IMG/VR virus record: IMGVR_UViG_3300027804_000063
Location: 10,186 to 74,185 of that record
Strand: one strand, 5' to 3'
DNA length: 64,000 nt
DNA from: a virus
Taxonomy: Duplodnaviria; Caudoviricetes
Position 1 is the stretch's first letter. Each line of letters opens with the position of its first letter. The notes below the pieces were generated by a model. That model was not told the DNA's origin. It saw only the letters and a list, made by a program, of their open reading frames with translations, and did not search any database. Shown here one piece after another: positions 2,422-21,391 of the stretch. A program made the translations under genes and the position numbers.

Positions 2422-2480
2422 GTAGTGGAGCGGGACTACGAACCCTTCTGTCGGGTTGGGTGTCGTAGCCCGCTCACTAC
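2422..2480. terminator. Long imperfect hairpin
   Basis: GTAGTGGAGCGGGACTACGA ... TCGTAGCCCGCTCACTAC inverted repeat. Confidence 0.55.
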
Positions 2481-2585
2481 TTAACCAACTTCAACACAGG
2501 TTTTCTGTAGGTCGGATGGTTACGCATTGAGCGTGACAGATCATTGTTTCCGCCACCGTTCAGTTTGGATAACTTCGGTTTGGTT

Positions 2586-2930
2586 TTAGAACGGTTCTTC
2601 TGTGCCATCTTCATCATCTTCTAGTTGATCTATCTTCTGTTGCCATTCCATCAAAATGTAAAACGCATCTGATCGTCGTTTAATTGCGTTACTGGTCATT
2701 ATCGGCCAGTCTTTGATTGGTGTTGCGAAACCTTCAAAGTGTTCTTGCATCCCTTCTTCAGTTCCACAGTCTGAACAGATCTCTATCGGTTTAGAGTGCT
2801 TGTCTCGTGTGAGACGCGATATTGCGCCCATGTATTGTTTGTGATGTTCGTTGGAGGGAATTAGCCCTTCACATCGTGGGCATACACCCATGTCTATTTG
2901 TTTTGAATGGATCTTGTTAAACGGTTTCAT
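2586..2930 (-). CDS. Hypothetical Zn-finger-like protein
   Basis: CPRC...CSDC pairs. Confidence 0.7.
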   Translation of the reverse strand: MKPFNKIHSKQIDMGVCPRCEGLIPSNEHHKQYMGAISRLTRDKHSKPIEICSDCGTEEGMQEHFEGFATPIKDWPIMTSNAIKRRSDAFYILMEWQQKIDQLEDDEDGTEEPF

Positions 2931-3075
2931 TATGTGTTCTTTCTTCTAGTGGTATATGTGGAGATTTTCTGTTTTCCCATCCGCAGATTTCTTCAAACCA
3001 TTCATCCATCCATGATGTGCGGGATGAATAGTTTACTTCTGTTATTGCCCACCCGCAGTATTTACAAGTTTTCAT
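2917..3075 (-). CDS. Small hypothetical protein (CKYC)
   Basis: ATG immediately after a repeat copy; overlaps the next gene. Confidence 0.5.
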   Translation of the reverse strand: MKTCKYCGWAITEVNYSSRTSWMDEWFEEICGWENRKSPHIPLEERTHNETV

Positions 3076-3092
3076 TTTATATACGCCACCGT

Positions 3093-3284
3093 TCAGTTTG
3101 GAATAGGGGTTTGTTTGAATGTCAGGTATCCGCCGTCGCAATCTGATGCGATTCCTGTTACCCAACATTCTTGTTCGTCGCCGACGATTGCGCGGATCTT
3201 CTGTATCGCGTTTGTCATTGCGTCGGTGTCGTATTCGCCGTCTACATCTGTTGTGACCATGACGGTGACTCTGTAGGTGGACAT
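3093..3284 (-). CDS. Hypothetical protein
   Basis: Coupled ORF; its stop codon lies inside a repeat copy. Confidence 0.65.
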   Translation of the reverse strand: MSTYRVTVMVTTDVDGEYDTDAMTNAIQKIRAIVGDEQECWVTGIASDCDGGYLTFKQTPIPN

Positions 3285-3607
3285 TATTGGTTGTTCTCCA
3301 AATACTGTTCAACCGCTTTCAGACCTTTGTTGAGGAGAAGGGAGATTGGGAGGAACGCTGATGCGTGCTTCCCGTAGGTGTCACCGTTCTTCTCAATAGA
3401 CTCTGCGATCAGTCGCTCTATGATGTCTTCGTTGAACGCGACACAAATGCTGTTATCGCCAATCCCATACACCAATGGTTCAAGTTCGTCCCTCTGAGGG
3501 AATACTTCTGGTGGTGCTGTCAAGAATGTGACGGTAGTTCCGTCTTCGTGTTGCATACGGATAAGAACATCTTTGTTGTCGTCGTCTGTAAACTCTGTGA
3601 AGTCCAT
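3284..3607 (-). CDS. Hypothetical protein
   Basis: Acidic ORF coupled to the next gene. Confidence 0.7.
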   Translation of the reverse strand: MDFTEFTDDDNKDVLIRMQHEDGTTVTFLTAPPEVFPQRDELEPLVYGIGDNSICVAFNEDIIERLIAESIEKNGDTYGKHASAFLPISLLLNKGLKAVEQYLENNQ

Positions 3608-3665
3608 TTTGTTTTCTTTCTGATGGCATATACGCCACCGTTCGGTTTGGATAAAGCCACTTCGT

Positions 3666-7066: not shown

Positions 7067-7461
7067 TACTTCTCCTTGTTTAGTTAGGTTTATTTGCTTG
7101 CCCCAACATTATGCATGATGGGTGTAACACAGTTATTTTTTAGTAGGTATTTTTTATTACTCTCACATTATATATCCGACAAAAACAAAAAGCAACTATT
7201 CCCCAAAACTATTTAGACCTAAATACGGAGCGATATTTAGAGCGAAATCTAGAGCGATCACTCAGCCCGACCAAATGCGATCCGTATTCAGGTTTATATG
7301 CGCCACCGTTCAGGTTAGATGCGAACAACCAACCATTGCTAACTAACAATCGTTGCAAACTAGTCCCGCATCAACAAAGCCCACCCCACAGCCCCGCCCC
7401 CCGCCGCAAGGCGCGGGACTAATGCTTGCGAACGGCTGTTCGCCCTACTACTATCGGGGCT

Positions 7462-7848
7462 ATGACAATCTCACGAACAGACAGATGGCAATACCGTTTC
7501 AATGCGCTCGTGCAATACACCAACAGAACAGGAACATCACTCGTTCCCGCGACACAGGTTGAAGTGTACGAAGGGAAGAATGTCGCGCTCGGCGCATGGG
7601 TCGCGTACAACCGTCAGCAGTATCGCGCAGGAGAACTACCGCTTGAGCGAAAGCAAGCGTTGGAGCAACTCGCAGGTTGGCATTGGGAGAAGCAGAAACC
7701 TGGCAGACGCTACGACATGACGCGAGACGCAGAGATCGCGAAGCGTTATCAGAGTGGTGAGCGCGTAGGAATGATCGCAGACAGTTTCAATCTGTCACGC
7801 CAACGGGTTCATCAAATCTTGAAAAAGGTTTCATCACCAAATGTCTGA
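7462..7848 (+). CDS. Helicase-associated (HA) domain plus C-terminal HTH protein
   Basis: WQYRFNALVQY...LGAWVAYNRQQY...ALEQLAGWHW, then RDAEI...FNLSRQRVHQIL. Confidence 0.75.
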   Translation: MTISRTDRWQYRFNALVQYTNRTGTSLVPATQVEVYEGKNVALGAWVAYNRQQYRAGELPLERKQALEQLAGWHWEKQKPGRRYDMTRDAEIAKRYQSGERVGMIADSFNLSRQRVHQILKKVSSPNV

Positions 7849-8185
7849 TTACGGTCATCAACACGACAAGCGCGATCATAACGCTTGGAAAAAGATGAGC
7901 GAATGGTCTCACAGCGTTCCTGATTACGAACTTGACGCATTGTGGGATGAAGACATTTGGAGCACAAATCTGCCACCTGTTGAGACGGGCGCACAGAAGT
8001 TTGGGAAGTTTCTTGTTGCGACACTCGGTCTCTTTATTGGTATCGCGCTCGTATCGGTTGTTTTCTATCAACTTGTTTTAGCGTTGGGTTTCACTGACAT
8101 CACTTTCCGTGAAGCGGTGATCGCAACTGTGTGTGTCGCGTTTATTCGTTACGCCGACGCAGGAGTGATGAAACAACTCCGATAA
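7841..8185 (+). CDS. Membrane protein
   Basis: Two hydrophobic segments; overlaps the upstream gene. Confidence 0.65.
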   Translation: MSDYGHQHDKRDHNAWKKMSEWSHSVPDYELDALWDEDIWSTNLPPVETGAQKFGKFLVATLGLFIGIALVSVVFYQLVLALGFTDITFREAVIATVCVAFIRYADAGVMKQLR

Positions 8186-8190
8186 ACACA

Positions 8191-8220
8191 TCAGGACGCA
8201 CCCTTGCGAGTGCGCCCTGA
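8191..8220. terminator. Hairpin between convergent genes
   Basis: TCAGGACGCAC...GTGCGCCCTGA. Confidence 0.55.
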
Positions 8221-8314
8221 GCGGAGAAGCGAAAGGTGAAAGGAGAAGTCCTTTCGTTCCTCTAGCGATACAGAATAACACATGAGTTATATGTCGTTCT
8301 GAAGCGATTAGGTT

Positions 8315-9808
8315 TTACCCCAATCGCTTTCCATTTAGTTTGAGATATGTTTCCTGCCAACATCTCGGATACCAACGGTTCGGTTTCTTGCCGACTGACA
8401 GTTGCTTCAACACCGCGAGACCGTCAGTGACATTGTGTGCCATAAACACTTTGTGCTTCAAGACTTCTTTTATGCAGTCCATTGCCAAGATGTCGTGGTA
8501 TCCACCGTATTGACCACCTGTGCCAAGACCGTGAACCTTGCCGTCAGTCACCCACACGATCGGTGTGGACGAACGCTTGCGTTGCTTCACTGCCCAACGG
8601 ATTGCTTCTCCGTCTACGCCGTTACCGCCGTTACGCTCGGGAAGTTTGTCAATCATTTTCCCGTTTTGTGCGAGAACGAGAAGGTTCGGTTTGACATTGT
8701 TTCGGTCTGCTGAATAAACCGCAACCGTGCAACCTGGACTTGCTTCCGTGATGTCAAGGATGTCTTTGTTAGTGAAAGACATTGAACCTGAACCGTCAAT
8801 CAGAACGATACCGCCGTTGCCTTTCTTGTATCGGTCAAACACACGCTTTTCGGGATCTGCGAGTGCGTTACCAATCCTGCGAGGGTTGCGACCCATGTTG
8901 CTCGCGACACGCTTGCGACCGAGACCGCCGTGCGCCTTGCGAGTGAGTGGGAGTGTTCCGACAATGAGTTTGCCCCAACTTGGAACAACACCATTGTTGC
9001 CCTTGCCGACTTCCGTAGGTCGTACCTTCTTTGGGTCTGCCTTTGGTTGTGCGTTGGTTGCGCCAACACCGCCCTTCCCGTCTTTCGTTGGGTCGTCCTT
9101 CTTTGGTTCGCCTTCGCCTTCCTTCTGACCGTTAGGTTCGTCCTGTTGCTCGTCCTCATCCTGTTGTGGTGGGTTCGCAAGACGATCTACCCACTCCGCA
9201 ATACGCTCGGTGTGAGAGAAACCGAAAGGTGCAAGACCGTGACGAGGGTCTACTTCGGTTGAACCGAGTGTTCCCGTCTTGAACGCCTTGACAAACTCTT
9301 TCTCAACCGCCTTGATGATCTCGCGCAATGTTTTCGCCCACGCAGGGTTCACACGCTTGACACCCGTGAGAAAATCTTTGCCACCACCACAGATTGAGTA
9401 ACCGACCGCGATATAAACCGCCTGTGTCCAATCACCTGCTTCTGCGATACGAACGCCTGACGCTTTCTCACTTCCGTCCGCGAGGAGATCAACATCAAAT
9501 CCTGCTTTCTTGATAAGAAAGTTCACGCGCACTTCCTCAACGACAGTCATTGCTTCCTCTGTCGCAATGCCACGCGCAATCCATTTCGGAAAATCATCCG
9601 CAGGTGAAAATCGTGCGTGTGCCATTTCGTGCGCACGGATAACTCGGTCAATCTGCTCGTCACCAACAGGAACAACCATGTGCTTCGTGACGACATTCGT
9701 CATTGGTTTGCCACGCACAGGTGCGCAAGTGTCTACGCGCCATACACCTGCGTCCTTATCTTTACGACCCAACATTTCGGGAAGTGGTCTGATTTCTACT
9801 TTCTGCAT
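8315..9808 (-). CDS. HExxH metallopeptidase-like plus vWA domain protein (MoxR partner)
   Basis: RAHEMAH; MIDAS motif DGSGS...VTDG; acidic linker. Confidence 0.8.
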   Translation of the reverse strand: MQKVEIRPLPEMLGRKDKDAGVWRVDTCAPVRGKPMTNVVTKHMVVPVGDEQIDRVIRAHEMAHARFSPADDFPKWIARGIATEEAMTVVEEVRVNFLIKKAGFDVDLLADGSEKASGVRIAEAGDWTQAVYIAVGYSICGGGKDFLTGVKRVNPAWAKTLREIIKAVEKEFVKAFKTGTLGSTEVDPRHGLAPFGFSHTERIAEWVDRLANPPQQDEDEQQDEPNGQKEGEGEPKKDDPTKDGKGGVGATNAQPKADPKKVRPTEVGKGNNGVVPSWGKLIVGTLPLTRKAHGGLGRKRVASNMGRNPRRIGNALADPEKRVFDRYKKGNGGIVLIDGSGSMSFTNKDILDITEASPGCTVAVYSADRNNVKPNLLVLAQNGKMIDKLPERNGGNGVDGEAIRWAVKQRKRSSTPIVWVTDGKVHGLGTGGQYGGYHDILAMDCIKEVLKHKVFMAHNVTDGLAVLKQLSVGKKPNRWYPRCWQETYLKLNGKRLG

Positions 9809-9898
9809 TTTTCCTTCTTTCGTTTCTAGGTTTATGTCTCTTGCTTAGGGAGACTTACTTACACCCCCCACTTTAGGTGAGGGGTGTAGTGGGGTTTA

Positions 9899-10642
9899 TT
9901 AGACCGCGACCTTGTTGATCGCGATTGCGTCCAAGACGCTTTCTGCCTGTCGCCCGAACACCATTCGTGCGCTGTCCTTGTCACCAAGTGTCTTTCGCAG
10001 TTGGTCAAATGCGTAGAAGGTGCGGAGTGAAATCCTGCGCTCTCCTGCGTCTGCCATACGAACCGCATACTCACGCAAGTCTGCCGACAACTTCTTGAGT
10101 GCGTCAGGGTGAGGTTGGTTGATACGGATTGCGACAGGGAAACGGTCTTTCAACGCTTCAGGGAGTTCCTCCATTGTCTCAATGTTTGTAGTCATAACGA
10201 CACTGAAACCGTCTTTCGGAGTGATCGTGCGTCCGTTTTCAGGACTTTCCCACTTCGCGCTTTCAGGACTATCGGTGAACGCGAGAAGTGTTGCGAACAC
10301 ATCCGCACCTGCCTTGTCAATCTCGTCAATGACGAGACGACCACCACGCAAACCGTCACCCTTCCATGCGGACACTGCCTTACCGTCCACCCAAGACCAA
10401 CCGCCTTCGCCGTTCATCTTGTAGTGACCCTCAACTTGCGCATTGGACATATCCTCTGTGCAAATGAGACGGAACGCTCCTGCGGTGACATCACCGTAGT
10501 TGAGACCTGCGAAGGTCTTGCCCGTTCCTGGGGGTCCGAACAGGATGAGACGATCTACTCCTGCCTTGAGTGCGTTCTCAACATCCTTCCAACACTGCGG
10601 AAGGTCGTTGCGCACCTCTCTCTCTGCGACTTGCTGTTCCAT
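9899..10642 (-). CDS. MoxR/CbbQ-type AAA+ ATPase
   Basis: GPPGTGKT, VIDEIDKA, MTTN, ALKDRF. Confidence 0.9.
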   Translation of the reverse strand: MEQQVAEREVRNDLPQCWKDVENALKAGVDRLILFGPPGTGKTFAGLNYGDVTAGAFRLICTEDMSNAQVEGHYKMNGEGGWSWVDGKAVSAWKGDGLRGGRLVIDEIDKAGADVFATLLAFTDSPESAKWESPENGRTITPKDGFSVVMTTNIETMEELPEALKDRFPVAIRINQPHPDALKKLSADLREYAVRMADAGERRISLRTFYAFDQLRKTLGDKDSARMVFGRQAESVLDAIAINKVAV

Positions 10643-10744
10643 TACTTTCCTTCTTTCTCCGAACCTTGTTCGGTCTAGTTGCTTATTTCTAGGTTTACTT
10701 GCCTTACACCCCCAACATTACATTGGGGGTGTAACAGGGTTTGA

Positions 10745-11152
10745 TTACGCGACTTGCGCTTCTGCGTCTGCGTTGCTCTCGGACTTTGCGCCCTTGAGTT
10801 CCGTGACACGGATTTGCTCGTATGCGGTGATCGTGGTTACTGCGTCTGCGACATCTGCCTTGATGACACCGACTTCCACTGCTGACTTGAACTTCTTTCC
10901 GTCCACTGCGAACTTGGTGACAGTCTTGAACACCTTGTCCGAAACGAGACCCTTCAAGAGTTCCACGCTGTATGAAGGACGCTCGCCCCTCACAACCGCG
11001 ACCTTTACTCCGTCCACGACTGCGTAGTCCACGCCTTCCTTTGCGAGTTCCAACTTGAAACTTGCTTCCGCTTGTGCGAGTTCCTGCTCTGCGATCGCCA
11101 ATGCTTCACGCTTTGCGAGAACTGACTTCGCTGTTGAGGTGATTAGTGCCAT
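10745..11152 (-). CDS. Hypothetical protein
   Basis: AAGGAGA SD and own promoter. Confidence 0.75.
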   Translation of the reverse strand: MALITSTAKSVLAKREALAIAEQELAQAEASFKLELAKEGVDYAVVDGVKVAVVRGERPSYSVELLKGLVSDKVFKTVTKFAVDGKKFKSAVEVGVIKADVADAVTTITAYEQIRVTELKGAKSESNADAEAQVA

Positions 11153-11295
11153 TTGATTTTCTCCTTATGTTTAGTTGGTTTATTTGCTTCTTGTCCACCA
11201 CTCTATATGAGGGGTGTAACACGGTTATTTCTATTTCGTACTGACTAACTATCTATGATAGATAGTCTAGTACCACTTTTGGGGGATTGCAACCT

Positions 11296-11571
11296 TTATT
11301 CCAAGATTTTTGAGATTTCTTGATCCATATTGGTCACAAACTCCTGAACCACATTTTCCTCATATTCCGCAACGATTTGTCGCGCAATCGGGTTCAAGAC
11401 CCGTGCGAGTTCCTGTGCTGTCCCTAACCGTTCTAACAGGGTTTCCTTGCGGTCGCTGTCGGTGTCAGGGTTCGTGGACTCTTTTGCGTCCTTGATTACC
11501 TGCCCACCTAATGCGGTTTGCAGAAGGAATACCTGATCTGCTGTTAGTCGGACTTCGTATCGCTTTGCCAT
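11296..11571 (-). CDS. Hypothetical protein
   Basis: ORF MAKRYEVRL... after an AAGG SD (start approximate). Confidence 0.55.
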   Translation of the reverse strand: MAKRYEVRLTADQVFLLQTALGGQVIKDAKESTNPDTDSDRKETLLERLGTAQELARVLNPIARQIVAEYEENVVQEFVTNMDQEISKILE

Positions 11572-11653
11572 TCTGTTTCCTTTCGGGTTGTTGTTGTTCA
11601 TACCTTTATTACGCAATGAGCCCCCAAAAGTGTGCGGTGTTTTTTAGAAAATC

Positions 11654-11686
11654 TTTTCCACAGGGTTATCCTCAACCTGTGGATAA
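11654..11686. promoter_or_regulatory. Cluster of three DnaA-box-like 9-mers
   Basis: TTTTCCACA-ggg-TTATCCTCA-acc-TGTGGATAA. Confidence 0.7.
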
Positions 11687-11874
11687 CTCGTTGAGGTTTA
11701 TATACGCCACCGTCCATGTTGGGAGATCACAGTCAGGATCGCTGATTCGTGCGCGCGCCCGCGCGTGAGCCCCGCATGGTTCTTCGCGAGAAGAAGAGCC
11801 CCGCACCCGCATCTTCAAACGCGGGACTAGGCAAAAAGAAAGGGGAGGCTTTCGCCCCCCCTCTTATTTTTTGA

Positions 11875-12012
11875 TTACTCCCAAGTAATCATTCCGTTTT
11901 CTGAGATGTAGGTTGGGAGTCCCATACTTTTGAGTTCCTCGTATGTGTAGGGATCTTTTTGGTTTTTGTTGATGTGATCAACATATCCCTTGTTTCTTTC
12001 TGCTTCTGTCAT
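11875..12012 (-). CDS. Small hypothetical protein
   Basis: AAGGAGA SD, promoter at 12052, terminator-like hairpin downstream. Confidence 0.55.
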   Translation of the reverse strand: MTEAERNKGYVDHINKNQKDPYTYEELKSMGLPTYISENGMITWE

Positions 12013-12447
12013 TTCTTCTCCTTGTTTTAGTTGTTCTTCCTTACATATATAACATTACTGTAAGGGTGTTGCACAGTATTGACGCACGGAGAACCTCAAA
12101 ATGTGTATGTCACACTTTATCTAACTAAGTGCGTTATATGTATGTAGGCAACAACGCCTACCAAAGCGTTAGGAGACGCAGTTGGAAATCAACTACGAAG
12201 CAATAAAAGAAATGCGAAAAGCGTTGAAGCAAGAAATTGCAAGAAACGGGATCAACGAAAACAACAGGCAGTGGGTTCACGAACTGCGAGTTGCGATTGA
12301 ACTTCGCGAAAGCGGTGTTTACTAAAACCACAAAGAAAACCCCAACTCAGAAATGGGTTGGGGTTCTTTTTTGCGTTAGCCCCGCGTCTGATGCACGCAT
12401 TCGCGTAGTCCCGACATCCGATGCGCGTAACGGGACTGAGACAAAAT

Positions 12448-12486
12448 AAAACCCGCAGAAGATGGCTGAGTTCTTCTGCGGGTTTT
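12448..12486. terminator. Bidirectional intrinsic terminator
   Basis: Perfect 14-bp stem AAAACCCGCAGAAG/CTTCTGCGGGTTTT. Confidence 0.8.
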
Positions 12487-12489
12487 GAT

Positions 12490-12699
12490 TTAGTTGGTTG
12501 TTTCGCGGACTACCTGAAACCGATCGCCTTCTTCGGTGATCATTCCGAGAGTGCTTCCGTTGTCCCATTTGATGTGAACCGTGCCAAGTCCGTCAATATG
12601 GGTGACGACACCTTCGTCTCCCCACTTCAACTTCGTGTACGGGTCGCCTGACCGCATAAACATTACGCGCTTACCGACATAACTTTCTTTGTCTGACAT
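12490..12699 (-). CDS. DUF4314 family protein
   Basis: GKRV...DPY..L..GDEGVVTHIDGLGTVHIKWDNGSTLG. Confidence 0.8.
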   Translation of the reverse strand: MSDKESYVGKRVMFMRSGDPYTKLKWGDEGVVTHIDGLGTVHIKWDNGSTLGMITEEGDRFQVVRETTN

Positions 12700-12923
12700 T
12701 AGTAGACCCCGAACGATATTCCGTCTGATGTCAGTCCGAACAACGCACCTGCGTCGTTTCCTTCTGTGTCCATTGACGGGTAAAGAATAGTTCCGCTAGA
12801 GAGAACGAGAACCATTGGTATCTCATTCTTGCGCCAACCTTCTTTGTCCATTTCTGCTTGTGTCATTGGTCGGATATCAACAACTGTTGATCCGACAATG
12901 GTGTCGTCTATTGTGTCGCTCAT
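12699..12923 (-). CDS. Hypothetical phage protein
   Basis: Coupled ORF with AGGAGA SD. Confidence 0.7.
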   Translation of the reverse strand: MSDTIDDTIVGSTVVDIRPMTQAEMDKEGWRKNEIPMVLVLSSGTILYPSMDTEGNDAGALFGLTSDGISFGVY

Positions 12924-12966
12924 TTACTTTCTCCTTTTGTTTAGGTTTATGTGAAGCGTCTCGCTG

Positions 12967-13221
12967 TTATGCGGACGCTTTTGGAAGTTTGAGACCTTTG
13001 AGTTCGCGTTCCAACTCTGCGCCCTCAACATTGTTCATTAGGTCAATGAGTTCATCTAACCAAGTCGCAACGGGGATAGGTAGTGGTGTGACACGGAGAT
13101 AGTCGTCGTACTTGGTGAGAACGCTATCTATCTCGCTCACTAATCCTGCGCCTTCAACATTGCGAACAATGTCAAAGATGTCGCGCAACAACTGTTTCCA
13201 ATCTTGGTTTACTGTTTTCAT
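12967..13221 (-). CDS. Hypothetical protein
   Basis: AAGGAGA SD and promoter at 13255. Confidence 0.7.
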   Translation of the reverse strand: MKTVNQDWKQLLRDIFDIVRNVEGAGLVSEIDSVLTKYDDYLRVTPLPIPVATWLDELIDLMNNVEGAELERELKGLKLPKASA

Positions 13222-13550
13222 TTGTGCTTCTCCTTTGTCTAGGTTTATATAACTATCTTACTGAAGCGGTGTGACAGGGTTATCCTGCCATCACCCGACT
13301 TGCTCCCACGATCCACAACAACGACACTTCCAACGCCCAATCCTTTTCAGGGTTCTGAGTGTAGAACTCGTACCATTGCTTCGCTTCGTTGAGACATTCG
13401 CTGACTGACATTATTGACCATCTCCATTCCATCTGAACCCACGACATTCTTGCTTGTTACGCTTCTTGCGCTTGTCTGCGACACGCTGTGCCTTCAGGAT
13501 ATTCCTATCCGCGAACGCTTGACGGTCTGCGTCATTCCATTTCTTATTCA

Positions 13551-14033
13551 TTAGAACCTTCTCCTGTTTCTCCGCCACTCGTGGCAGTCGTGCTTTGCTT
13601 GCTCATCTACTTCTGCTTGCGTCATCTTTGCCGTGATCAACGGACGGTATCCGCACGAGTTACACGCGATACCGAGATATTCGGTGACACCTTGTGCCAA
13701 CTGATATCCGTGAACCGCCGTGTTGCCGTGTGTTCGTTCGTTGAGATAAACCGTGATGAACACTTCACAGTTCGCGCAACCGATGATCTTGACATCTTTG
13801 CCGTTTGTCGGTGCTTGCTTCGTAAAGAAGTCAAACTTGAAGTGCTTACAGGTTTCGCATTTGTCGTCAAGTTTGCGTGACTTGACGATTTCTGTTTTGC
13901 CCTCTGTGATTACTGAATACTCTTGTGGGAGTATTCCTTTCAAGGTCGCTTGATGAATGAGGTGATTTCGCACCAACCATTCCGTGTAAGGCTTTGCAAC
14001 CTTTGCGACTTTGGTCTTTCCTTTCTTTGCCAT
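13551..14033 (-). CDS. Cys-rich Zn-binding hypothetical protein
   Basis: CETC, CANC and CNSC pairs; SD and promoter upstream. Confidence 0.75.
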   Translation of the reverse strand: MAKKGKTKVAKVAKPYTEWLVRNHLIHQATLKGILPQEYSVITEGKTEIVKSRKLDDKCETCKHFKFDFFTKQAPTNGKDVKIIGCANCEVFITVYLNERTHGNTAVHGYQLAQGVTEYLGIACNSCGYRPLITAKMTQAEVDEQAKHDCHEWRRNRRRF

Positions 14034-14168
14034 TTCTAGTTTCTCCTTGTTTAGGTTTATCTAACTCGCTACTTACACTATATACGCACGGTGTCATATA
14101 GTTTGTGTCATTTATAGACCTAATAATAAATATACTTCTAATATATCAGGGGCATAATATACCCACAC

Positions 14169-14189
14169 TTATCCACAGGCTGTGAATAA
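14169..14189. promoter_or_regulatory. Inverted DnaA-box pair
   Basis: TTATCCACA-ggc-TGTGAATAA; both fit TTWTNCACA. Confidence 0.75.
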
Positions 14190-14616
14190 CTAGATCACCC
14201 AACTCCACTTAGCACTAAATACAAAAACACAGCAGTTATATACGCCACCGTTCAAGTTGGGGTTGATGTCACGACATCACGACAGCAGATCCGCGATCCG
14301 CCAGCCCACAGCCCCGCGCCCATCTTCCGATGCGCGGGACTCACAAGTCTCGGCTTGTTCTTCGGGACTGTAGGATGCGTTTATGCCCCATCCATTCCGT
14401 CCGCGTAAAGAATCCCATAACTTGCAGATCGTTGAGATCATTGACGCGATCGCTCAAACTGAGCCCGAACTATTTGGCGTTGGGACTGCAACACTTATGC
14501 CCGTCAAGCACTCCGCACGGCTCACACTTGCAGACGATCTGCACCCCTACTATCAGCCCCTAACGCAAAATAGCCCGCCTACCGAACGGCAGACGGGCTA
14601 ATTGTTTGAGTGCTAG

Positions 14617-15104
14617 TTACTTCGGTTGCGCCTCACTCCATAGGTGTCTAAATACGAACTTCGGAATCGGATGCCCGTCGTTCGTAAAGTAGTAACCATT
14701 CTCAAGTGTTGAATGATCGGGAATAGTTACGATCTGACGCTTGCTAACACGCCCACCATACCAATACCCAACGATAAAGATATTGTGATCGCTTGTCGTC
14801 TCCCATTGCCAACGCGACTTACCGACATACCCCTTATAGGTAAGTTGAGTGCTCACGACTGCACCCACCCGTTAGGTGTGCGCATTGCGTATAGATACGG
14901 TATGACGCTCAGAATGAGATCGGTAAGTGCCTGCGACACTTCATCCCGACTAGTTGCCATACCGTGAATGAAGTCGTCGTCAATGCGCCCATGAATGAGA
15001 TCATCCACGATCGCGCCAATAACTCCGATACCTATCGCACCTATGCCGAGATAATTCTCCGCAAGGACTTCGCTAATAGATACCGTCTCCGTAATGTCTG
15101 ACAT
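14617..15104 (-). CDS. Two small hypothetical ORFs (14853-15104 and 14617-~14850)
   Basis: Adjacent ORFs on the dominant strand. Confidence 0.55.
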
Positions 15105-15208
15105 AAATTGCCCTTCGTGTAGTAGTTGCTTAGTAATCGGCTTACGCCTTGTGCCTAGTTGGAATTGAATCCCACGCCGAACGCGCTAGGCGACTCACCT
15201 AGTGAGTG

Positions 15209-15646
15209 TTACGCACCGTGTGCGCCGTCTCCACCCATTGAGATAAGTGTCGCACGCTCCCACACTTCACGCACTTGCTCACTCGCACCCGAGAGACCAT
15301 TGTTGAGATAGTCAATGACACGACTCTCAAACTCGCCCAACGCCTTCGCGCTATAACGCGCGATCGGTTGAGTTGCAACCGTGCCACACGGATAGTTCAC
15401 CGTGTCAAAAATTGTGAACTTCACGACTTCGTAACCGTTGCCACGATCGTAGTGTGCATAACGGATATGCGCACTGAATTGCTTGCGATCTGAATCATGC
15501 GAGATACTCAACTTGACTAGTCCGCCAACTTGCTCACCGTCAAACTGAATTGACTGCGAAGGACTGCGCCAAGTGTAAGAGACTTCACGATCGCCCACCT
15601 TGCGAGTGGCTTGTGCGAAGTTCGCACCTTGAGTAATAACCGACAT
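15209..15646 (-). CDS. Hypothetical protein
   Basis: GGGAG SD and promoter at 15696. Confidence 0.7.
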   Translation of the reverse strand: MSVITQGANFAQATRKVGDREVSYTWRSPSQSIQFDGEQVGGLVKLSISHDSDRKQFSAHIRYAHYDRGNGYEVVKFTIFDTVNYPCGTVATQPIARYSAKALGEFESRVIDYLNNGLSGASEQVREVWERATLISMGGDGAHGA

Positions 15647-15986
15647 TATTTGCTCCCTTGTCTAGTAAATATAAGCGGAATTGCTTATACAAATAACTAT
15701 ACGCAAGGGGTGTTGCATAGTGTGACTGCACACGATCAGGTAAATAAGTGAGATATCGCTCATCCGCCATAGCCCGAGATCGGTATCTACGATCGTAGAT
15801 ATTTTGTATCCGCCACCGTTCAGGTTGGGGACTTCAGATCCGCCCCTCCCCGCGACGCGCGTCCGCGCCCGCGAGCCCCGCGCGCTGAATTGTTGGCGCG
15901 GGACTGATGCGGTTTATGCCATCTTCAGACAGTTGATCTTCAGATCAGATCAAAAGCCCCGCGCGCGTCTTCGTGTGACGGGGCTG

Positions 15987-16310
15987 TCAAGTCCAAATGA
16001 TCTTCGCAACTCCCCAGCGCTGCAGAGCCGCTTCGCATCTTTTACACGGCTTTGAGTTGGCGGGCAAACCATTGGCAAGAACTCGGGCAACATACACAGT
16101 CGCACCCGATATTTGAGACCCTGCCGATATCGCTCCTGCTATCTCTGCGTGGATATGCGACCTACGCCAAGCGTGGTGAACATCTCCGACACGCTTATTG
16201 GTGGCTTTGGCTACAACACGCCCGTTACGCACCACAACGCACCCGTGGCGGTGTCTACACCTGCTCTGAAGGGCTGTAGCGACCGCTGTGCGGAGATGAT
16301 GCTTGGACAT
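15987..16310 (-). CDS. Zn-dependent cytidine/dCMP deaminase-fold protein
   Basis: HAE and SKPCKRC motifs. Confidence 0.85.
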   Translation of the reverse strand: MSKHHLRTAVATALQSRCRHRHGCVVVRNGRVVAKATNKRVGDVHHAWRRSHIHAEIAGAISAGSQISGATVYVARVLANGLPANSKPCKRCEAALQRWGVAKIIWT

Positions 16311-16347
16311 AGGTTGGCATAGTTTATATGCCGACCCTAGAAACGCA

Positions 16348-16382
16348 AAAAGCCCCCACCCCGACAGAAGGGTGAGGGCTTG
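16348..16382 (-). terminator. Intrinsic terminator
   Basis: AAAAGCCCCCACCC...GGGTGAGGGCTT. Confidence 0.6.
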
Positions 16383-16396
16383 CGCCTGTGTGTGGA

Positions 16397-16813
16397 TTAC
16401 GCCGAGAGTGCTTCCACCTTCGCGCGAACATTCGCGATATTGGTGAAATGCTTGTCACCTGCGGGGGTGGTGAAACCGACCTTGATGACACCGTAACCGT
16501 CCTCTTGGGGTGCGACCCAAAAGACCACGCCGACCGTGCCCTTAGGAACTTTGCGCCCCTTGAACACCTCAACGGTTTGACCCTTGACGATTTCGCCGTT
16601 CGCGATCGCCTGTGCGAGACGCTCCTCGTTGAGACGGACGACTTCCGCCCAACGCGCGACCTGCTCCTCCGTGTGCCTGTGTGGTTGCTTCCAACGACCC
16701 ACACCACCCTCGTATACCTGACCTGCGCGCTCCGCGAGATAACGCACACCGTTACGGTTAGTGTCCCAAAACACCTCCGCACCGCACCCGCGACAACTGA
16801 TTACTTTGCTCAT
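16397..16813 (-). CDS. Hypothetical protein with KOW/SH3-like C-terminus
   Basis: CRGC; GQTVEVFKGRKVPKGTVGVVFW. Confidence 0.7.
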   Translation of the reverse strand: MSKVISCRGCGAEVFWDTNRNGVRYLAERAGQVYEGGVGRWKQPHRHTEEQVARWAEVVRLNEERLAQAIANGEIVKGQTVEVFKGRKVPKGTVGVVFWVAPQEDGYGVIKVGFTTPAGDKHFTNIANVRAKVEALSA

Positions 16814-17344
16814 ATGCCCTCCTTAGGGGTCTAGTAGTTACTACAGACATTACGCACAGGGTGTCACAGAGTGTGACTTGGATAAACCTAAACGGCGAAG
16901 CCGCTTTGTGACCGTGCGAAGCCGCTCGGCAGCGTCACCAAGCCGCTCGGCAGCGCTGGCTTTCCGCGTTCCGCAGCGCTGGCTTTCCCTCCTCACAGCC
17001 CCGCAAACCGCGTAACTACGCGGGACTAGCAGGTTGGCGACAAACAGTAGCGTTTGGGGAGGACCTCCCGCAGGACCTGACGCGGAGGACCCGACGAAAC
17101 GTTCAAAAAACGTCAGTTTTTGCACGTTTTTGCTGGTTTTAGAAAAACGCGTTTTTACAACTTTTTTTGCGGTTTTTGAAAGCCTTATTTTATAAGGGTT
17201 TTACGGAGGGTGTTTTTGGGAACTTTCCCACCCAACTCAGAAAACCATCAAAAACGTCACTTTTTGATCAACCCGGCTGCCAGGTCCGTCTTCAGCCCGG
17301 GAAGATGCGGTTACAGTCCCGAAGATCTGTCGCTGATGCGGGGC

Positions 17345-17545
17345 TCAGAAGAGAGTTGGTGCGTCATCAAACGCGTTACGCGACTCTGTGCAGATGCGGT
17401 GGGCGTAACCAAGTGGGGTTGAAGGGTTGCGAGGTGCGCCAATGTATCTTCCGTCTTTGTGTTCTATCCAAGACAGTATCTTGACGCAGTATTGGGTGTT
17501 GAGGGTGTCAAACTCTATGTTGCAGATGGAGCAGGCGACTTTCAT
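17345..17545 (-). CDS. Small Zn-finger-like protein
   Basis: CSIC...HRIC. Confidence 0.55.
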   Translation of the reverse strand: MKVACSICNIEFDTLNTQYCVKILSWIEHKDGRYIGAPRNPSTPLGYAHRICTESRNAFDDAPTLF

Positions 17546-17710
17546 GCCTGTCAGACTAGCGGATTTAGTTTTGTGGTGCGCTGTCTACGGACAGTTCGTT
17601 GTGTGACCGTAGGTCTAACAGCAGATCAACCATCTCTGCGGAGGACACTAGTTCCCGACCCGAGATGGTTTTGATCGCGTTGTCAATGACCTGAACAACT
17701 GTGAGTTCTT

Positions 17711-18166
17711 TTACTGTATCTGTGACCATTGTTCATCGTCCTCAATGATTTCTGATGCGCTGAGAACCATGCCGTCTAGTTCAAAATCAACACAGTTCAA
17801 CCAACCATCAACTATACCGTCTCCGTATGCGTAGAGATCAAACCACGCATTATTGACCCACTCAATGCGCTCTGCTTCATCTGCTTCACGCAACTTTTGG
17901 TCGGTGTCAATACCTGCGCGCATGAGACGGTCGCAGTAACGGATAACTTCAGGGTCGTCACCACGCTCTCGTGCTTCTTTGCTTTCCCAAAGGTTGAGAC
18001 GCATTTCGCCGTCGCAGAACACTCTGACTTCACGGTCGCCCATTGTGACGGTCGCGATGTGTTGATGTGCGTTTGCGTCCCAAACATAGAACGCAGGGTC
18101 TTGTCGGTGCTTCCGATCTTCGTCTGTCACCTCATAGGTGATTTTGATGTCGGGTTTAGTTTCCAT
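17711..18166 (-). CDS. Hypothetical protein
   Basis: AAGGAGA SD and promoter at 18196. Confidence 0.75.
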   Translation of the reverse strand: METKPDIKITYEVTDEDRKHRQDPAFYVWDANAHQHIATVTMGDREVRVFCDGEMRLNLWESKEARERGDDPEVIRYCDRLMRAGIDTDQKLREADEAERIEWVNNAWFDLYAYGDGIVDGWLNCVDFELDGMVLSASEIIEDDEQWSQIQ

Positions 18167-18368
18167 TTACTTCTCCTTGTCTAGTAGTTGATGCAAGAAT
18201 ACCCGAAGGGTGTCGCAGGGTTATTCGTAAAAAGGTTCAGCGGGTTTCTGTCTCGGGGTCGGGTTGTTTCGTGCGAGTTTGCGTATCTGATACAACGCAA
18301 ACAAAATAGGGACACCGAAGAACGCCACCAAGATCATCTTGATACCCAAGACGACACCTAAGACACGC

Positions 18369-19484
18369 TTATTCACGGACACCAACCAAGTTCAACGCTT
18401 CGTCTAGTTGCATTGTGGTTTTGATGGAGTGATCGCCGTCGTATGCGACTGTCACAAAGTTCGCACCTTGTGACGGGTCTTTCGCTAACGCACAGATTTC
18501 TCCGTATGCCTGAACGATCGCGTCTAAATGATCGTCTGCCTCATACACCATCTGCCAAGTGACCAAGTATGATTTGCTCATACGCTGAGGTCTGCCTGCC
18601 ACGCGAACATTGGGGAAACGCCAAGTTCATCTTTGATACAACGGAGGGTAACTTCTGTATCAACTTTGTACTGTTCCAACAACGCGAGGGTGTCTGCGAG
18701 TTTGAGTTTGTCGCTCTCTATCTGAGAACGAAGTTCATAAACTTGCTTTGACAAACTCTCAAATGTTTGCTTGTTTCTACGGAGTTTCATTACTTGTCTG
18801 CCTTTCGGTCTGCTTGTGGATCTCTTACTTCATACCGACGACCCTCACGCTTGATGAAGATGTCGGGTCTATCTGTAACAACCTTGCGTGCTGTCGCTTC
18901 GGATACTTCTCCGATTTCTGCGAGTTGCTTGATAGTCACCAACTCAAAGACATTGTCTTTCGCCCACGACAAAATGTCGTTCTTGCCGTCTTGCGCCGTG
19001 CGCCAACCTTCGCTGTGCTCTGCGTTCGCCAACAGTTCCGCTTTGATGTGTGACGGAACAATGTCACGGACACGCTTCGCCACATGTGCAACCCAAACGG
19101 GTGTTCCGTATACACGGATCGCTTCTGTGACTTCGCGTATCGCGCTGTCAAGTTCTGTGTCTAGTTCGTTACTCATAGTATCTACTATACGCAACGGGTG
19201 TGACAAAGTGTGCGATGCCATTAGAACAAGTCCTTTTCGTCTTGAAGAAAGTCAGGAACAACTAGTCCCTTTTGCGCCTCTATACACGCACTCTCCGCTT
19301 CGTATATTGACTTCTTGACTTGCGCCAATGCGTTCTTGTATACCGCACTTTGGTTTGCTTCGTCGGTTCGTAAAAGTTCCGACACAACAAGATCGTATGC
19401 AGTATTCAGAGATCGCAATACCCGACTAAGACTGAGATAGTCCTCGTCAAAGATTTGTTTGATCGTGTTCTGTGTTTCAGTCAC
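18369..19484 (-). CDS. Run of four small hypothetical ORFs (18369-~18590, 18578-18790, 18790-19176, 19221-19484)
   Basis: Coupled ORFs; 19176 start is apparently leaderless after -10 TATAGT; TTGCTT-N17-TATAAT promoter near 19530-19560. Confidence 0.65.
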
Positions 19485-19780
19485 TATCTTTTTATACCCC
19501 TTTCAGAGTTCTAGGTTTATCTAACACTACCATTATATATACCCCCACAACAAAAAGCAACCCCACCCCAAACATTTGTTTGCCCACCTCCCCAAAAACT
19601 TTTATATCCGCCACCGTTCGGTTTGCAGAACACTTCTGAGATCCCTCCGCGCCCCCGCCCGTCGGCTCAGGCTCACAGCCCCGCGTTTCTCTTCAGATGA
19701 CGGGGCTCCCGGGTTTGATCCCGGCTTGCATTCTGGTTGGGAGTCAGATAAACTACAAGAACTAGAAAAAGGGGGTCGTT

Positions 19781-20380
19781 TTGGCTCAAATTGAGTTAGA
19801 AATATTAGAAGAAGTCAGCAAATATTGGGTTTCCTTCCGCAAAAAGGAAAATATTCAGCAGAACTCGTGCATCTTGGCGTGCAACTTCGTGCGTCAAATC
19901 TTGATCCGCATGGGTGTAGACCACGAGGTTGTCCCCATCGGGACTACGGTCTTCAACCGCAGAGGTTGGGAACTGTTCGGTCTTGCAAACAACCAACTGC
20001 CTGACGACGCATGGCAAGTCCATTGTTCAAGCGCATCTTTGGGCAGAGGTTTCGGTGGTCATGTTGTAATCCAAACGAAGAACTATTTTTTTGATCCGAC
20101 AGCAGGCGCGTTCTCCCGACCTGAGCACGGCATGACCGTCCCCGAAACTTTGATAGTCCCGTTGGCGAAGATGGAAGTTCACAAACGGGACTCCAACACT
20201 CACCCTGTTCATGTTGTGTTTCGTACCAACAAGTTTTGGACTTTCCCGATCGGGTCGGGGTTGTATTCGTATTACTTTGAGAAGTGGAACACGATTTATC
20301 GTAAGTCACCCGATTGGCAGGTCTCACCGAAGCAGTTAGGGATACCTGACATAGTTGCGGAGATGCGTAAGGGTTCTTGA
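19781..20380 (+). CDS. Transglutaminase/papain-like fold protein (putative Cys-His-Asp triad)
   Basis: NSCILAC...GGHVV...FFDPTAG. Confidence 0.5.
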   Translation: MAQIELEILEEVSKYWVSFRKKENIQQNSCILACNFVRQILIRMGVDHEVVPIGTTVFNRRGWELFGLANNQLPDDAWQVHCSSASLGRGFGGHVVIQTKNYFFDPTAGAFSRPEHGMTVPETLIVPLAKMEVHKRDSNTHPVHVVFRTNKFWTFPIGSGLYSYYFEKWNTIYRKSPDWQVSPKQLGIPDIVAEMRKGS

Positions 20381-20443
20381 CTTTATAACACCCCACCCAT
20401 ATAATGGTACTTGTAATATAGAACTACTAAACAAGGAGACGAA

Positions 20444-20776
20444 ATGACCGAGAACACTTACCGAACAGTCAAGACTGTTCTAATCACAGCGACAGTCACT
20501 ATCGCATCAGTATTCGCTTTCAGTTATCTGAAAGAACAGAACCGACAAGACAACGAGTTCTTTTGTAACGGAGCACCTATCACCATTGAACAAGGCGACA
20601 CCTTGTATTGGATCGCACGCACAAACTGTGAAGGCAACACCATGAATGTTGTGGACGAACTTGTGCGAGTTTACGGAACTGATCTCACGGTTGGTGACAC
20701 GATCTACCTACCAACACACCCGAACTGCGAACTACGCATGACAGACGGCGGACAAGTAATGGAAGAGTGCAAGTAA
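20444..20776 (+). CDS. LysM-domain protein with N-terminal membrane anchor
   Basis: ITIEQGDTLYWIA...LTVGDTIYLP; TTGACT-N17-TATAAT promoter at 20377-20405. Confidence 0.8.
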   Translation: MTENTYRTVKTVLITATVTIASVFAFSYLKEQNRQDNEFFCNGAPITIEQGDTLYWIARTNCEGNTMNVVDELVRVYGTDLTVGDTIYLPTHPNCELRMTDGGQVMEECK

Positions 20777-21391
20777 TGGGAATAGAGAAACTAGATAACC
20801 CATACACAACGGAGTGTCTTGACTGCGGAATAAACCTGTGGTCACAATACCTGCACTATTTAGGTATGGACAACGACACCGCACAATGCGCAAACTGTCT
20901 AACAGCAAACCCTACTAAATACGAAAGAGAGATAGAAATAGCGTGAGCGAACAAAACGGACAACTACCGACCTTCGGAGAATGGTGCGACCTGCACCGAA
21001 TGAACCCCGACAACGACGACAACTACGAACTTTATTGTAAGTGGTTAGAAAGAGAGAAAAAGTCATGAGCATCACCGAACTAATCCCATCTACCGCCCGA
21101 GCGTGGAAAGCAGGGAAATACATTTACTGTCTTTCACACGGGCGAAGTCAAGTGATTAGCACCATAGAGTTTCTGAACGAAGATAGCGAACACCTATACG
21201 ACGGCAAGAAATGCGATTGGTGCGGAAAGAACTTAGGTAAAAAGTCATGAGCGACACCGAAGTCACCCTAGAGGACTTAGACGAAACAGTCAGCGAACTA
21301 GACCGCCTAATGGCGTTACTAGCGGAGCGTCTAGGCGCACGACCCGTAACCAAAGCACCTCACTACGAAGACAAATAGATAAACTATCTAG

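Follow-up and report, generated by a model that had tools for sequence, protein, structure and literature searches.

The window analysed here, a 64,000-nt stretch of a Caudoviricetes genome (IMG/VR record IMGVR_UViG_3300027804_000063, positions 10,186 to 74,185), contains short motifs that recur between its gene blocks. The initial annotation described them as five clear copies of one composite element, in which the 9-mer CGCCACCGT is followed by a dyad of the form AGYCCCG-N17/18-CGGGRCT. Whether this is really a single element, and what it does for the phage, is the question that the locus raises. The number five is correct for the composite and wrong for its components, each of which has more copies than claimed (Table 1).

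The 9-mer is present at all the positions originally given (7301, 11705, 14243, 15811 and 19609) and also at 1832, 2140, 2551, 3084 and 3633. All 10 copies are on the plus strand, against an expectation of 0.43, and a count of 10 was reached in 0 of 100 shuffles. In this lineage the 9-mer forms the core of a 26-nt box, which is read on the coding (minus) strand. In the wider phage group the box is conserved over only about 14 nt, ACGGTGGYGGAWR, with a constant core and diverging flanks. Its direction is that of leftward transcription: every one of the 10 copies is co-oriented with leftward genes, and in 145 kb no copy lies ahead of any rightward gene. The whole set falls in one 18-kb block, with its highest density close to a strand-skew flip. 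The copies are all in syntenic positions in four relatives with genomes of about 140 kb, each with 9-12 boxes in the same 18-kb block. A search for a host origin of the box gave 0 matches in 185,579 species genomes.

Table 1. Positions of the boxes, dyads and associated features in the window (strand "." for dyads, clusters and arrays).
Feature	Position	Strand	Remarks
Box copy A, 26 nt	7293..7318	-	core ACGGTGGCG at 7309-7301; divergent region between leftward operon and HA+HTH gene
Box copy B	11697..11722	-	followed by conserved DnaA box
Box copy C	14235..14260	-	followed about 45 nt on by two inverted DnaA boxes and AT-rich stretch
Box copy D	15803..15828	-	followed by 18-bp palindrome
Box copy E	19601..19626	-	between divergent leftward promoter (19560) and probable rightward promoter (19733-19761)
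Five box copies without dyad	1824..3650	-	cores 1840, 2148, 2559, 3092, 3641
Dyad A	7390..7420	.	two inverted half-sites, 17-nt spacer
Dyad B	11797..11828	.	third half-site 11768-11774 (-); directly after bidirectional terminator 11839-11864
Dyad C	14310..14341	.	third half-site 14363-14369 (+)
Dyad D	15874..15905	.	second dyad at 15955-15985
Dyad E	19677..19707	.	orthologues in relatives with spacers of 16, 17 or 26 nt
Dyad and third half-site without box	12378..12437	.	between two bidirectional terminators
Six-half-site array	2199..2437	.	2 minus, 4 plus; around terminator-like hairpin
Dyads without box	within 16997..22357	.	16997-17027, 17315-17345, 20155-20192
Dyads without box, inside SNF2 gene	within 16997..22357	.	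21870-21909, 22318-22357
Gene of HA+HTH protein, 128 aa	7462..7848	+	HA domain and C-terminal HTH; candidate box binder
Host-type promoter, TTGCTT-17-TATAAT	7167..7195	-	of leftward operon, about 90 bp downstream of box A; twin at 19532-19560

The claim that the copies lie at borders of gene blocks with their own promoters was borne out. Box copies A to E are upstream of host-type promoters, and every long copy has a terminator or a divergent gene before it and a host-type promoter after it. The flanking features listed in the initial annotation are also real, including three GAGCGA units at 7228-7257, DnaA boxes at 11678, 14169 and 14181, the 18-bp palindrome before 15811 and the sigma70 promoter near 19530-60 (TTGCTT-17-TATAAT, minus strand, 19560-19532). 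The DnaA boxes adjoining boxes B and C are perfect and are conserved in relatives. A palindrome near copy E resembles the one in the regulator promoter described below, but it does not represent a repeated family. Among the other boxes, those with cores at 3641, 3092 and 2559 occupy intergenic gaps of 17-60 nt, and the copy at 1840 lies inside a coding region, at about codons 7-13 of a gene. At 3092 the TGA of the box is a stop codon and the next ATG lies 8 nt past the core; this is the sole copy in the window with a start-associated ORF. The ATAAACCT tail of the box was considered as a shared promoter core and rejected, because other genes carry this tail within their 5' leader, always 26 nt from the ATG.

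There are 12 dyads, ten in the form originally given (10 sites per strand against 0.29 expected) and two with a 26-nt spacer inside the SNF2 helicase gene. The five dyads reported after the 9-mer were all found, 63-92 bp from it start to start, and further ones start at 12407, 15955, 16997, 17315 and 20155. Their spacers measure 16-18 or 24-29 nt, two classes between which orthologous dyads switch. The unit that recurs is really the half-site, an 8-mer, D-CGGGRCT, which occurs in pairs, singly, in triplets and in one array, on both strands and in some cases antisense inside genes. The array lies between boxes 2559 and 2148, and has seven half-sites in relatives. Around dyad A, extra half-sites at 7362-7368 (-) and 7455-7461 (+) make a four-site cluster that is kept in relatives. 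This densest conserved cluster flanks the regulator's own promoter and stays at a fixed 28 nt from the -10 in five genomes. The 17-18 nt spacing had suggested a -35/-10 pair, and this was rejected because the halves are reverse-complementary, single sites are common and no start-site pattern follows them.

Box and dyad are separable, in that five boxes have no dyad and seven dyads have no box, and in the composite they are not adjacent but 54-83 nt apart. Nevertheless, a co-oriented half-site lies 57-66 nt upstream of 6 of the 10 boxes, namely the five of the composites and a looser sixth at 2148, which has unpaired half-sites 57 and 92 nt upstream. The association of box and half-site is therefore not due to chance. 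Flanked by the same genes, the five composites keep their synteny in up to five genomes, and beyond the short motifs their copies share nothing. The linker between box and dyad is C-rich on the plus strand. GATC, said to be frequent there, is found in four of the five gaps, but its regional enrichment is only mild, at 1.25-1.45 times expectation. The related tail noted at 14363 and 15899 is present.

Next to box A is the gene of a small protein with an HA domain and an HTH of the resolvase/sigma-4/Mor type. Its promoter is of the leaderless type (TTGCGA at 7426-7431, a 17-nt spacer, TACTAT at 7449-7454, then 7 nt to the ATG) and contains a CGAAC-N4-GTTCG palindrome at 7429-7442, a LexA-type palindrome being carried by this promoter in many lineages. 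An alignment-based model gave two confident domains (pLDDT 87), a single-sequence fold being poor, and a structure search with the model returned generic HTH matches only. Pfam Mor matches the C-terminal HTH in 19 of 30 family members and some homologues are named 'Mor family' in the source database, with fold matches to Mor and C being weak (E about 1). We collected 80 loci solely by homology to this protein (identity 91 to 39%), using two patterns, one of which was the recognition-helix peptide. Across these loci we counted 434 box cores on the opposite strand to the gene and 8 on its own, against 18 and 1 for a reversed control pattern. At least two boxes are present in 78 of the 80 loci, and 41 of the 80 have one no more than 300 bp upstream of the gene. 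The 48 loci that were translated share one and the same recognition helix, an identity that is partly imposed because the helix peptide was among the fetching patterns. The co-occurrence of box and gene could reflect the shared ancestry of one phage group and not a direct interaction.

The half-site shows a dependence on lineage. The base preceding it is A in 18 of 18 sites of the G003 lineage, and the other lineages have G in 60-80%; this holds for paired as well as for single sites. Because one lineage has A at all of its sites where others have mostly G, this shift points to a co-evolving protein. The changes specific to G003 in the HA+HTH protein (D7N, G24R and V35I) are all outside the recognition helix, so they do not pick out this protein as the half-site binder. 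Comparing the presence and absence of neighbouring genes with half-site density gave no clear candidate. The half-site is also the commonest 7-mer of a contiguous 29-kb domain (about 1.6 sites per kb, about ten-fold enriched over composition-matched 7-mers) and is absent from the rest of the 140-kb genome; the ends of the domain coincide with abrupt flips in strand composition. Judged from such comparisons of sequences, the shift and the tie of the box to a DNA-binding protein gene point to trans-acting proteins, and they argue for the multi-protein DNA site that the initial annotation had put forward.

The element was also said not to be a described one. This is right for its sequence but not for its kind, which has been described: oriented intergenic repeats, half of them with an upstream inverted repeat, occur in the non-structural regions of actinobacteriophages (PMC3203893, PMC7302621, PMC9283540). 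In cluster A mycobacteriophages (L5 gp71, TipsytheTRex), a monomeric two-domain repressor binds oriented asymmetric stoperators in promoter regions and short intergenic gaps (PMC9283540). The box is like a stoperator in being asymmetric, with 13-14 conserved bases and many copies per genome, in having its orientation locked to the direction of transcription, and in its placement, with the one copy at 1840 inside a coding region. Both cores contain GGTGG, and both systems are linked to a small protein with two DNA-binding domains (predicted in our case) whose gene is opposed to the regulated genes. In contrast to genome-wide stoperators, there are only 10 boxes in one 18-kb block, a second site family accompanies half of them, the regulator promoter has a LexA-type box and no lysogeny genes were seen. 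Moreover, the HA+HTH protein has no detectable homology to the stoperator domain or to the L5 gp71 family: profile and sequence searches of solved structures and the fold search gave only generic HTH matches.

SAS/ESAS repeats are found in cluster K mycobacteriophages and cluster EF Microbacterium phages, and oriented intergenic motifs of 18-30 bp in clusters EC and EI (PMC3203893, PMC7302621). The box resembles them in its asymmetry and orientation, in being restricted to the non-structural half of the genome and in its conservation between subclusters, including those with different neighbouring genes, and about half of the copies have an upstream imperfect inverted repeat with a variable spacer (here 5 of 10 boxes with a dyad and 6 of 10 with a half-site 57-66 nt upstream). 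However, the dyad is not adjacent to the box as it is in ESAS. SAS includes the ribosome-binding site and precedes start codons by 3-8 bp (PMC3203893, PMC7302621), whereas the association of the box with starts is only weak across the family: of 278 distinct boxes, 12% have an ATG-opened ORF of at least 45 codons that begins within 10 nt, the value for random positions being 7%. A separate SAS-like motif is also present in this phage. The Mor and C proteins of Mu are likewise small phage proteins whose C-terminal HTH matches Pfam Mor, with dyad-symmetric sites upstream of promoters that have no good -35. However, the N-terminal half is here an HA domain instead of the Mor dimerisation domain, the box is not a dyad, and the centre of dyad A falls near -57 in the promoter of the regulator itself, compared to -43.5 for Mor sites. 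The sites of matS/MatP, Noc and SlmA resemble the half-site in being short and confined to one contiguous chromosomal domain. This likeness is in distribution only, as we deal here with a phage genome and with asymmetric 8-mers, often paired at 17-18 bp.

Building on what was observed, namely the sites, their order, spacing and conservation, the strand lock, the gene linkage and the lineage shift, we tentatively favour, at a little under an even chance, the view that the composite consists of two families of phage-specific, predicted protein-binding sites, and that the box is an oriented, stoperator-like operator of the HA+HTH regulator. The two families share control regions at the heads of the leftward, early-type operons. 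The HA+HTH protein would bind the box and, on the model of the cluster A stoperators, the bound box would act directionally on RNA polymerase. The half-sites of the dyads may be the target of a second factor, with a specificity that varies from lineage to lineage. The effect could be repression, a roadblock or activation. A pure roadblock would have nothing to block at A, C and E because these are divergent junctions at which little leftward transcription should arrive, and with the LexA-type palindrome in its promoter, the regulator fits better as an SOS-induced activator or switch than as a maintenance repressor.

It is unlikely, though worth weighing first, that the box is instead a promoter specific to the phage, placed in tandem with the host-type promoters and served by a phage-modified host polymerase or by an unrecognised polymerase of the phage, with the dyads as upstream activator sites. 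The conserved 26-nt block is contiguous and ends in an AT-rich run, like the promoters of single-subunit polymerases, but this tail is lineage-specific, with GGAAAG or GGAAGA in its place in distant relatives, and it lacks the invariant final T of a -10 element. Strict co-orientation with genes, the fairly fixed half-site at 57-66 nt and the sigma-region-4/Mor-like HTH of the linked protein would agree with a promoter, and the ATG without a Shine-Dalgarno sequence 7-9 nt past the core at 3092 and its orthologues would suit a leaderless start. However, the copy at 1840 is inside a coding region, a transcript from the copy at 2559 would meet a terminator after about 300 nt with no gene between, and no copy precedes a rightward gene. 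The complete relative has four large ORFs without a family, which leaves room for a polymerase. Nothing recognisable as a phage polymerase or sigma factor was found in that genome with Pfam, PHROGs, solved-structure sequences or a protein atlas. In the four genomes sigma-70 region 2 was not found, nor was a T7-like polymerase (PF00940), a search that was also silent in 14 of 14 control genomes.

Origins or polar fork barriers like Ter sites are in our opinion a quite improbable explanation of these modules. They would account for the DnaA boxes, for the iteron-like half-site triplets and array, and for a long asymmetric box that keeps a single orientation and is densest near the skew flip; the G-rich transcript of the linker would favour R-loops. 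However, five to ten copies per genome are many for origins. Specific support for multiple origins, as for T5-like ejection signals, is limited to the conserved DnaA boxes of two copies. A DnaA or iteron cluster next to an AT-rich region exists at copy C and partly at B, and DnaA boxes are missing at A, D and E. The DnaA boxes overlap the -35 region of a promoter, and this fits regulation. Ter systems, moreover, would have an oppositely oriented set on the other side, which the box does not.

We regard it as very unlikely that the element acts as RNA on leftward transcripts, be it as a structured ncRNA, as was also proposed originally, a processing or stability signal, or GC-hairpin terminators without a U-tract. 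Most dyads show U-G wobbles when read on the minus strand and C-A mismatches when read on the plus strand, their stems extend 1-3 pairs past the 7-mer more than with shuffled spacers (1.47 against 0.59), and the box is co-oriented with transcription. The wobble pattern was first read as proof of RNA hairpins. This was later rejected because the combinations of Y and R have the counts predicted from their individual frequencies (TG 25, TA 8, CG 8 and CA 6), single sites occur on both strands, some antisense inside genes, and the flanking base of one lineage changed at all sites at once. The notion of a structured ncRNA family did not hold, as there was no covariation, whole composites folded no better than shuffles on either strand (z-scores of -0.5 to -1.8), and Rfam and tRNA scans gave no match. 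As for terminators, a U-run follows only the dyad at 15955-15985, the others being followed by G-rich sequence; canonical terminators with U-tracts sit elsewhere in the region, and one group of dyads is itself enclosed by terminators on both sides.

Recombination or mobility sites (PeSL-like, attC-like or REP/MITE-like) and T5-like packaging or ejection signals are extremely unlikely: the copies are indeed repeated, intergenic and at block borders, some alignments break at a dyad or box edge (window 11678 and 15906), and the inverted cores of seven bases around a variable centre are loosely reminiscent of attC, but the composites are syntenic and share only short motifs, no recombinase or transposase was found among 30 window proteins and 10 large ORFs of the complete relative, the sites are mid-map in that relative, and the module-shuffling cassettes once suggested fail because gene-content breakpoints are not enriched at the elements (8 of 81 in 7.4% of the sequence, with 6 expected).

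Searched with the 13-kb region, cultured phage genomes gave no near-identical match, the capsid protein has its best cultured relatives among actinophages (47% identity), and the proteins scanned showed neither an integrase nor a lysogeny module. A wider proposal, which we hold to be rather unlikely in its entirety, is that a large uncultured and probably actinobacterial phage group has independently evolved a hitherto undescribed functional analogue of the stoperator system, with an orientation-locked 14-nt box and its cognate two-domain regulator, controlled by an SOS box, as the constant part and with no classical lysogeny module, together with a lineage-specific second site as the variable part, here the 8-mer that would mark a 29-kb domain as a phage counterpart of domain-organising sites such as matS.

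To our knowledge, the cluster A stoperators are alone among the oriented intergenic repeats of many actinobacteriophage clusters in having a known protein and mechanism. The present comparisons connect such a repeat with one specific candidate protein in about 80 environmental phage contigs. The function of these repeats can therefore be put to a direct test, for which one small protein and a 14-nt site are enough. Should the box block or direct polymerase in one orientation, it would be a compact polar control part of independent origin. The half-site family, with its whole-lineage base change and its single domain bounded by composition flips, may offer a handle on the temporal or physical partitioning of large phage genomes.

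The repeated 9-mer of this region is real, and it has more copies than the five reported in the initial annotation: ten were found in the window, in the plus-strand orientation every time. On the coding strand, the 9-mer forms the middle of a 26-nt block, CCAAcCTGA-ACGGTGGCG-kATAyAAa (the box), whose consensus was built from 50 copies in five genomes. Only about 14 nt of it, ttg-ACGGTGGYGGAWR, are conserved across the group; the window's 26-mer also has a CCAA arm and an AT-rich tail, both of which are lineage-specific. The extended box was found in about 20 viral contigs and had zero matches in 185,579 prokaryotic species genomes. Five boxes have a dyad of two inverted CGGGRCT half-sites at 63-92 bp, just as had been annotated, and box 2148 is a sixth, with unpaired half-sites. 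In these six copies the nearest co-oriented half-site lies 57, 59, 61, 65, 61 and 66 nt from the box core; the remaining four boxes are in short gaps or inside a gene, with no half-site nearby. Ten dyads of the stated geometry occur in the window, two more with longer spacers lie within the helicase gene, and seven dyads have no box. Because there are boxes without a half-site and dyads without a box, the composite is not a single unit: two independent site families recurrently lie side by side. Both are probably regulatory DNA sites bound by proteins, and not RNA elements or mobile DNA.

The window covers bases 10186-74185 of a 74-kb IMG/VR viral contig with an estimated completeness of about half. 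Small genes with AAGGAG ribosome sites, nearly all on the minus strand (leftward), occupy about 0.7-19.2 kb; rightward genes, including those for an SNF2 helicase, a DUF932 protein and SSB, are found from about 19.8 kb on, and a primase-helicase, a class II ribonucleotide reductase, a DNA methylase and head genes lie farther along. The region is common to four related contigs, G001 (138 kb), G004 (145 kb, rated complete), G002 (101 kb) and G003 (30 kb), at 70-88% DNA identity, and no close cultured phage was found. The host is likely actinobacterial, as hinted by capsid relatives among actinophages, by Streptomyces as the only named cellular relative of an HA-domain protein, and by promoters of leaderless type. 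G004 also carries four large ORFs of 1351, 931, 955 and 890 aa (C1:14939-18994 and 79960-89037), three of which adjoin head genes. The 931- and 955-aa ORFs had zero Pfam, PHROG or solved-structure matches, the 890-aa ORF a single weak match to an unannotated PHROG, and the 1351-aa ORF a single weak PDB sequence match.

The two half-site 7-mers are the commonest of all 7-mers at 0.9-31.2 kb of the window (28 and 22 copies, where 7-mers of equal composition have about 2.4). All 45 copies in G004 are within 28.5-57.0 kb (C1:28527-56996), all 49 in G001 within 32.9-61.4 kb (C1:32902-61422), and every copy in a further contig, G006, within the first 15.5 of 65 kb. In the window, G004 and G001, one 29-kb domain holds every half-site copy, in genomes of about 140 kb. 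This enrichment is very strong. The 7-mers are also missing from 31.2-64 kb of the window and the 12 kb preceding it, but this counts for less, since 12-14% of composition-matched 7-mers likewise lack a copy outside the domain. The domain ends match abrupt flips of (A+C) versus (G+T) strand composition, which in G004 occur at about 26-27 kb and 57 kb, and the last half-site of the window (31146) sits exactly on the flip. The base preceding CGGGRCT is A in 18 of 18 G003 sites, while the four remaining genomes have G there in 60-80% of sites and C in 1 of 190. Thus one recognised base has changed at every site of one lineage, paired or single, as co-evolution with a trans-acting protein predicts, and we regard the half-site as a putative protein site with an unusual distribution. 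Dyad spacers are 16-18 nt in 34 cases and 24-29 nt in 13, and orthologous dyads swap class.

The five long intergenic regions were read on the minus strand and each was aligned with its orthologues, and a common plan was found. A module starts with a strong terminator or a divergently read gene, followed by one dyad, in many cases with a third half-site 28-29 bp off, and by a linker whose minus strand is G-rich and which frequently contains GATC. Then come the box, sites that differ from copy to copy (DnaA boxes for B and C, a palindrome for D), one or two promoters of host type and, at the end, a conserved leader motif, a ribosome site and the first gene. The initial annotation was correct that the element punctuates the gene region. 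Copies A, C and E are in divergent regions because two rightward islands interrupt the leftward block and rightward genes start at 19781.

Several smaller features were seen in the same regions. The three GAGCGA units of 12-bp period near copy A are reduced in G001 and absent in G004, G002 and G003, so the module does not include them as a conserved feature. Upstream of the AAGGAG site lies a start-associated leader motif, ATAAACCTAnAC, whose first T is exactly 26 nt ahead of the ATG in five genes. TAAACCT has 11 of its 14 minus-strand copies within the leftward block, and three of these make up a box's tail. Another repeated family looks promoter-like: its spacer carries a GTGTTACACCC-type element and its -10 reads TG-NN-TANNNT, with an inverted repeat also present in some copies (repeat families D3, D5, D7 and D8). 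One lone dyad with a third half-site is flanked by two bidirectional intrinsic terminators, which shield this group from transcription in both directions.

Coordinates of the features in the window
Feature	Position	Strand
Boxes of composites A-E (position of the plus-strand 9-mer)	7301, 11705, 14243, 15811, 19609	minus
Other boxes (core)	1840, 2148, 2559, 3092, 3641	minus
Half-site domain	2205-31146	
Canonical terminators	8191-8220, 11839-11864, 12338-12365, 14571-14600, 16350-16381	
Region of lone dyad and flanking terminators	12330-12490	
Shielded dyad group	12378-12437	
Rightward islands	7462-8185, 14383-14601	plus
GAGCGA units	7228-7257	
Leader motif ATAAACCTAnAC	7092, 9834, 12949, 13247, 14059; also 6377, 10697, 19519	minus
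GTGTTACACCC-type promoter-like family	5963-6432, 7103-7138, 10692-10741, 11177-11230, 15681-15724, others	
CGAAC-N4-GTTCG palindrome	7429-7442	
Leaderless-type starts	7449-7464, 14371-14385	plus
Regulator gene	7462-7848	plus
497-aa protein and AAA_5 ATPase genes	8315-10642	minus

Beside copy A, a rightward gene encodes a 128-aa protein that combines an HA domain with an HTH at its C-terminus. The HTH matches the models for resolvase, sigma region 4 and Mor, and the alignment-based structure model of the protein is confident (pLDDT 87). We searched viral contigs with an alignment of homologues of this regulator and confirmed 206 loci, of which 80 (91-39% identity), none selected by the box, were kept; because many are near-duplicates from different samples, they represent perhaps 15-20 independent lineages. 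In the 80 loci, the box core (C or T at the eighth base) occurred 434 times opposite the regulator gene's strand and 8 times on it, compared to 18 and 1 for a reversed control pattern. At least two boxes were present in 78 loci, and a box lay within 300 bp upstream of the regulator gene in 41. The recognition helix is identical across the 48 translated loci, partly by construction, since the search used two patterns and one of them was the helix peptide itself. Two neighbours of the regulator gene, encoding a 497-aa protein (phrog_33218, no known function) and an AAA_5 ATPase, are beside it in 70 and 65 of the 80 loci, respectively, forming a conserved three-gene neighbourhood. Both rightward island genes have a TANNNT 6-7 nt ahead of the ATG and no Shine-Dalgarno sequence, as in leaderless-type starts, and five genomes and many distant loci share this geometry at 7462.

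We lean slightly towards the HA+HTH protein as the factor that binds the box, which would then be the operator of this two-domain protein and would influence transcription of the leftward early-type genes in a directional manner, as stoperators do. If so, a polar roadblock or repressor mode would have about an even chance. The dyads, in this view, would be sites for a second factor that is specific to the lineage. The regulator promoter is overlapped, just upstream of its -10, by a CGAAC-N4-GTTCG palindrome, which has the LexA-box form of Gram-positive bacteria (LexA/Cheo-box form). It is exact in 21 of the 80 loci, from diverged lineages, and always abuts a TANNNT -10; elsewhere in 870 kb there are 18 exact copies, compared to about 1 expected. 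The palindrome suggests that the protein may be an SOS-linked switch or activator, and this cuts against simple repression.

The strongest competing reading makes the box a promoter specific to the phage, and the gene that follows copy 3092, which looks leaderless, would fit it. Against it, the tail of the box is lineage-specific, one copy is inside a gene, and no rightward gene is preceded by a box. No polymerase or sigma factor was recognised, but several large ORFs without assignment leave room for one.

A structured ncRNA family, one of the initial proposals, is not supported. The five composites are no more stable than dinucleotide shuffles on either strand (z +0.45 to -1.79), and the Y/R combinations of 47 dyads (TG 25, TA 8, CG 8, CA 6) are near those predicted by the marginals (23, 10, 10 and 4), so the wobble asymmetry that the dyads seem to show does not amount to covariation. 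Single half-sites occur on both strands, also antisense within the helicase gene, where 5 of 8 are kept across four genomes and changes are at the degenerate base only. The single terminator-enclosed dyad group and the Rfam and tRNA scans, which gave no match, also argue against RNA. The proposed module-shuffling cassettes fail because, of 81 alignment ends between the window and four relatives (31 intergenic), 8 were within 30 bp of a box or composite (7.4% of the region) against 6 expected, and all five composites are syntenic, with unchanged neighbours, in up to five genomes.

The elements are of a general kind that is already known. To our knowledge, stoperators are the only oriented intergenic repeats of actinobacteriophages with an established function. 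In cluster A mycobacteriophages, these 13-bp sites act with a monomeric two-domain repressor (PMC9283540). Oriented asymmetric intergenic repeats are frequent in the non-structural halves of actinobacteriophage clusters, and an inverted repeat lies upstream of about half of those in clusters K and EF (PMC3203893, PMC7302621). The present case differs in sequence, candidate protein, distance between the two parts and domain-restricted second site, and because we tested the HA+HTH regulator for homology to the repressor of the stoperator system and found none in profile, sequence and fold searches, it is not assigned to the stoperator family. Distant relatives (L208, L179, L167 and L175) keep the box together with other highly repeated second motifs, for example a 9-mer that 12 kb of L208 contains 13 times on one strand and 4 times on the opposite one. 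This suggests that a constant box system is combined with a partner system specific to each lineage.
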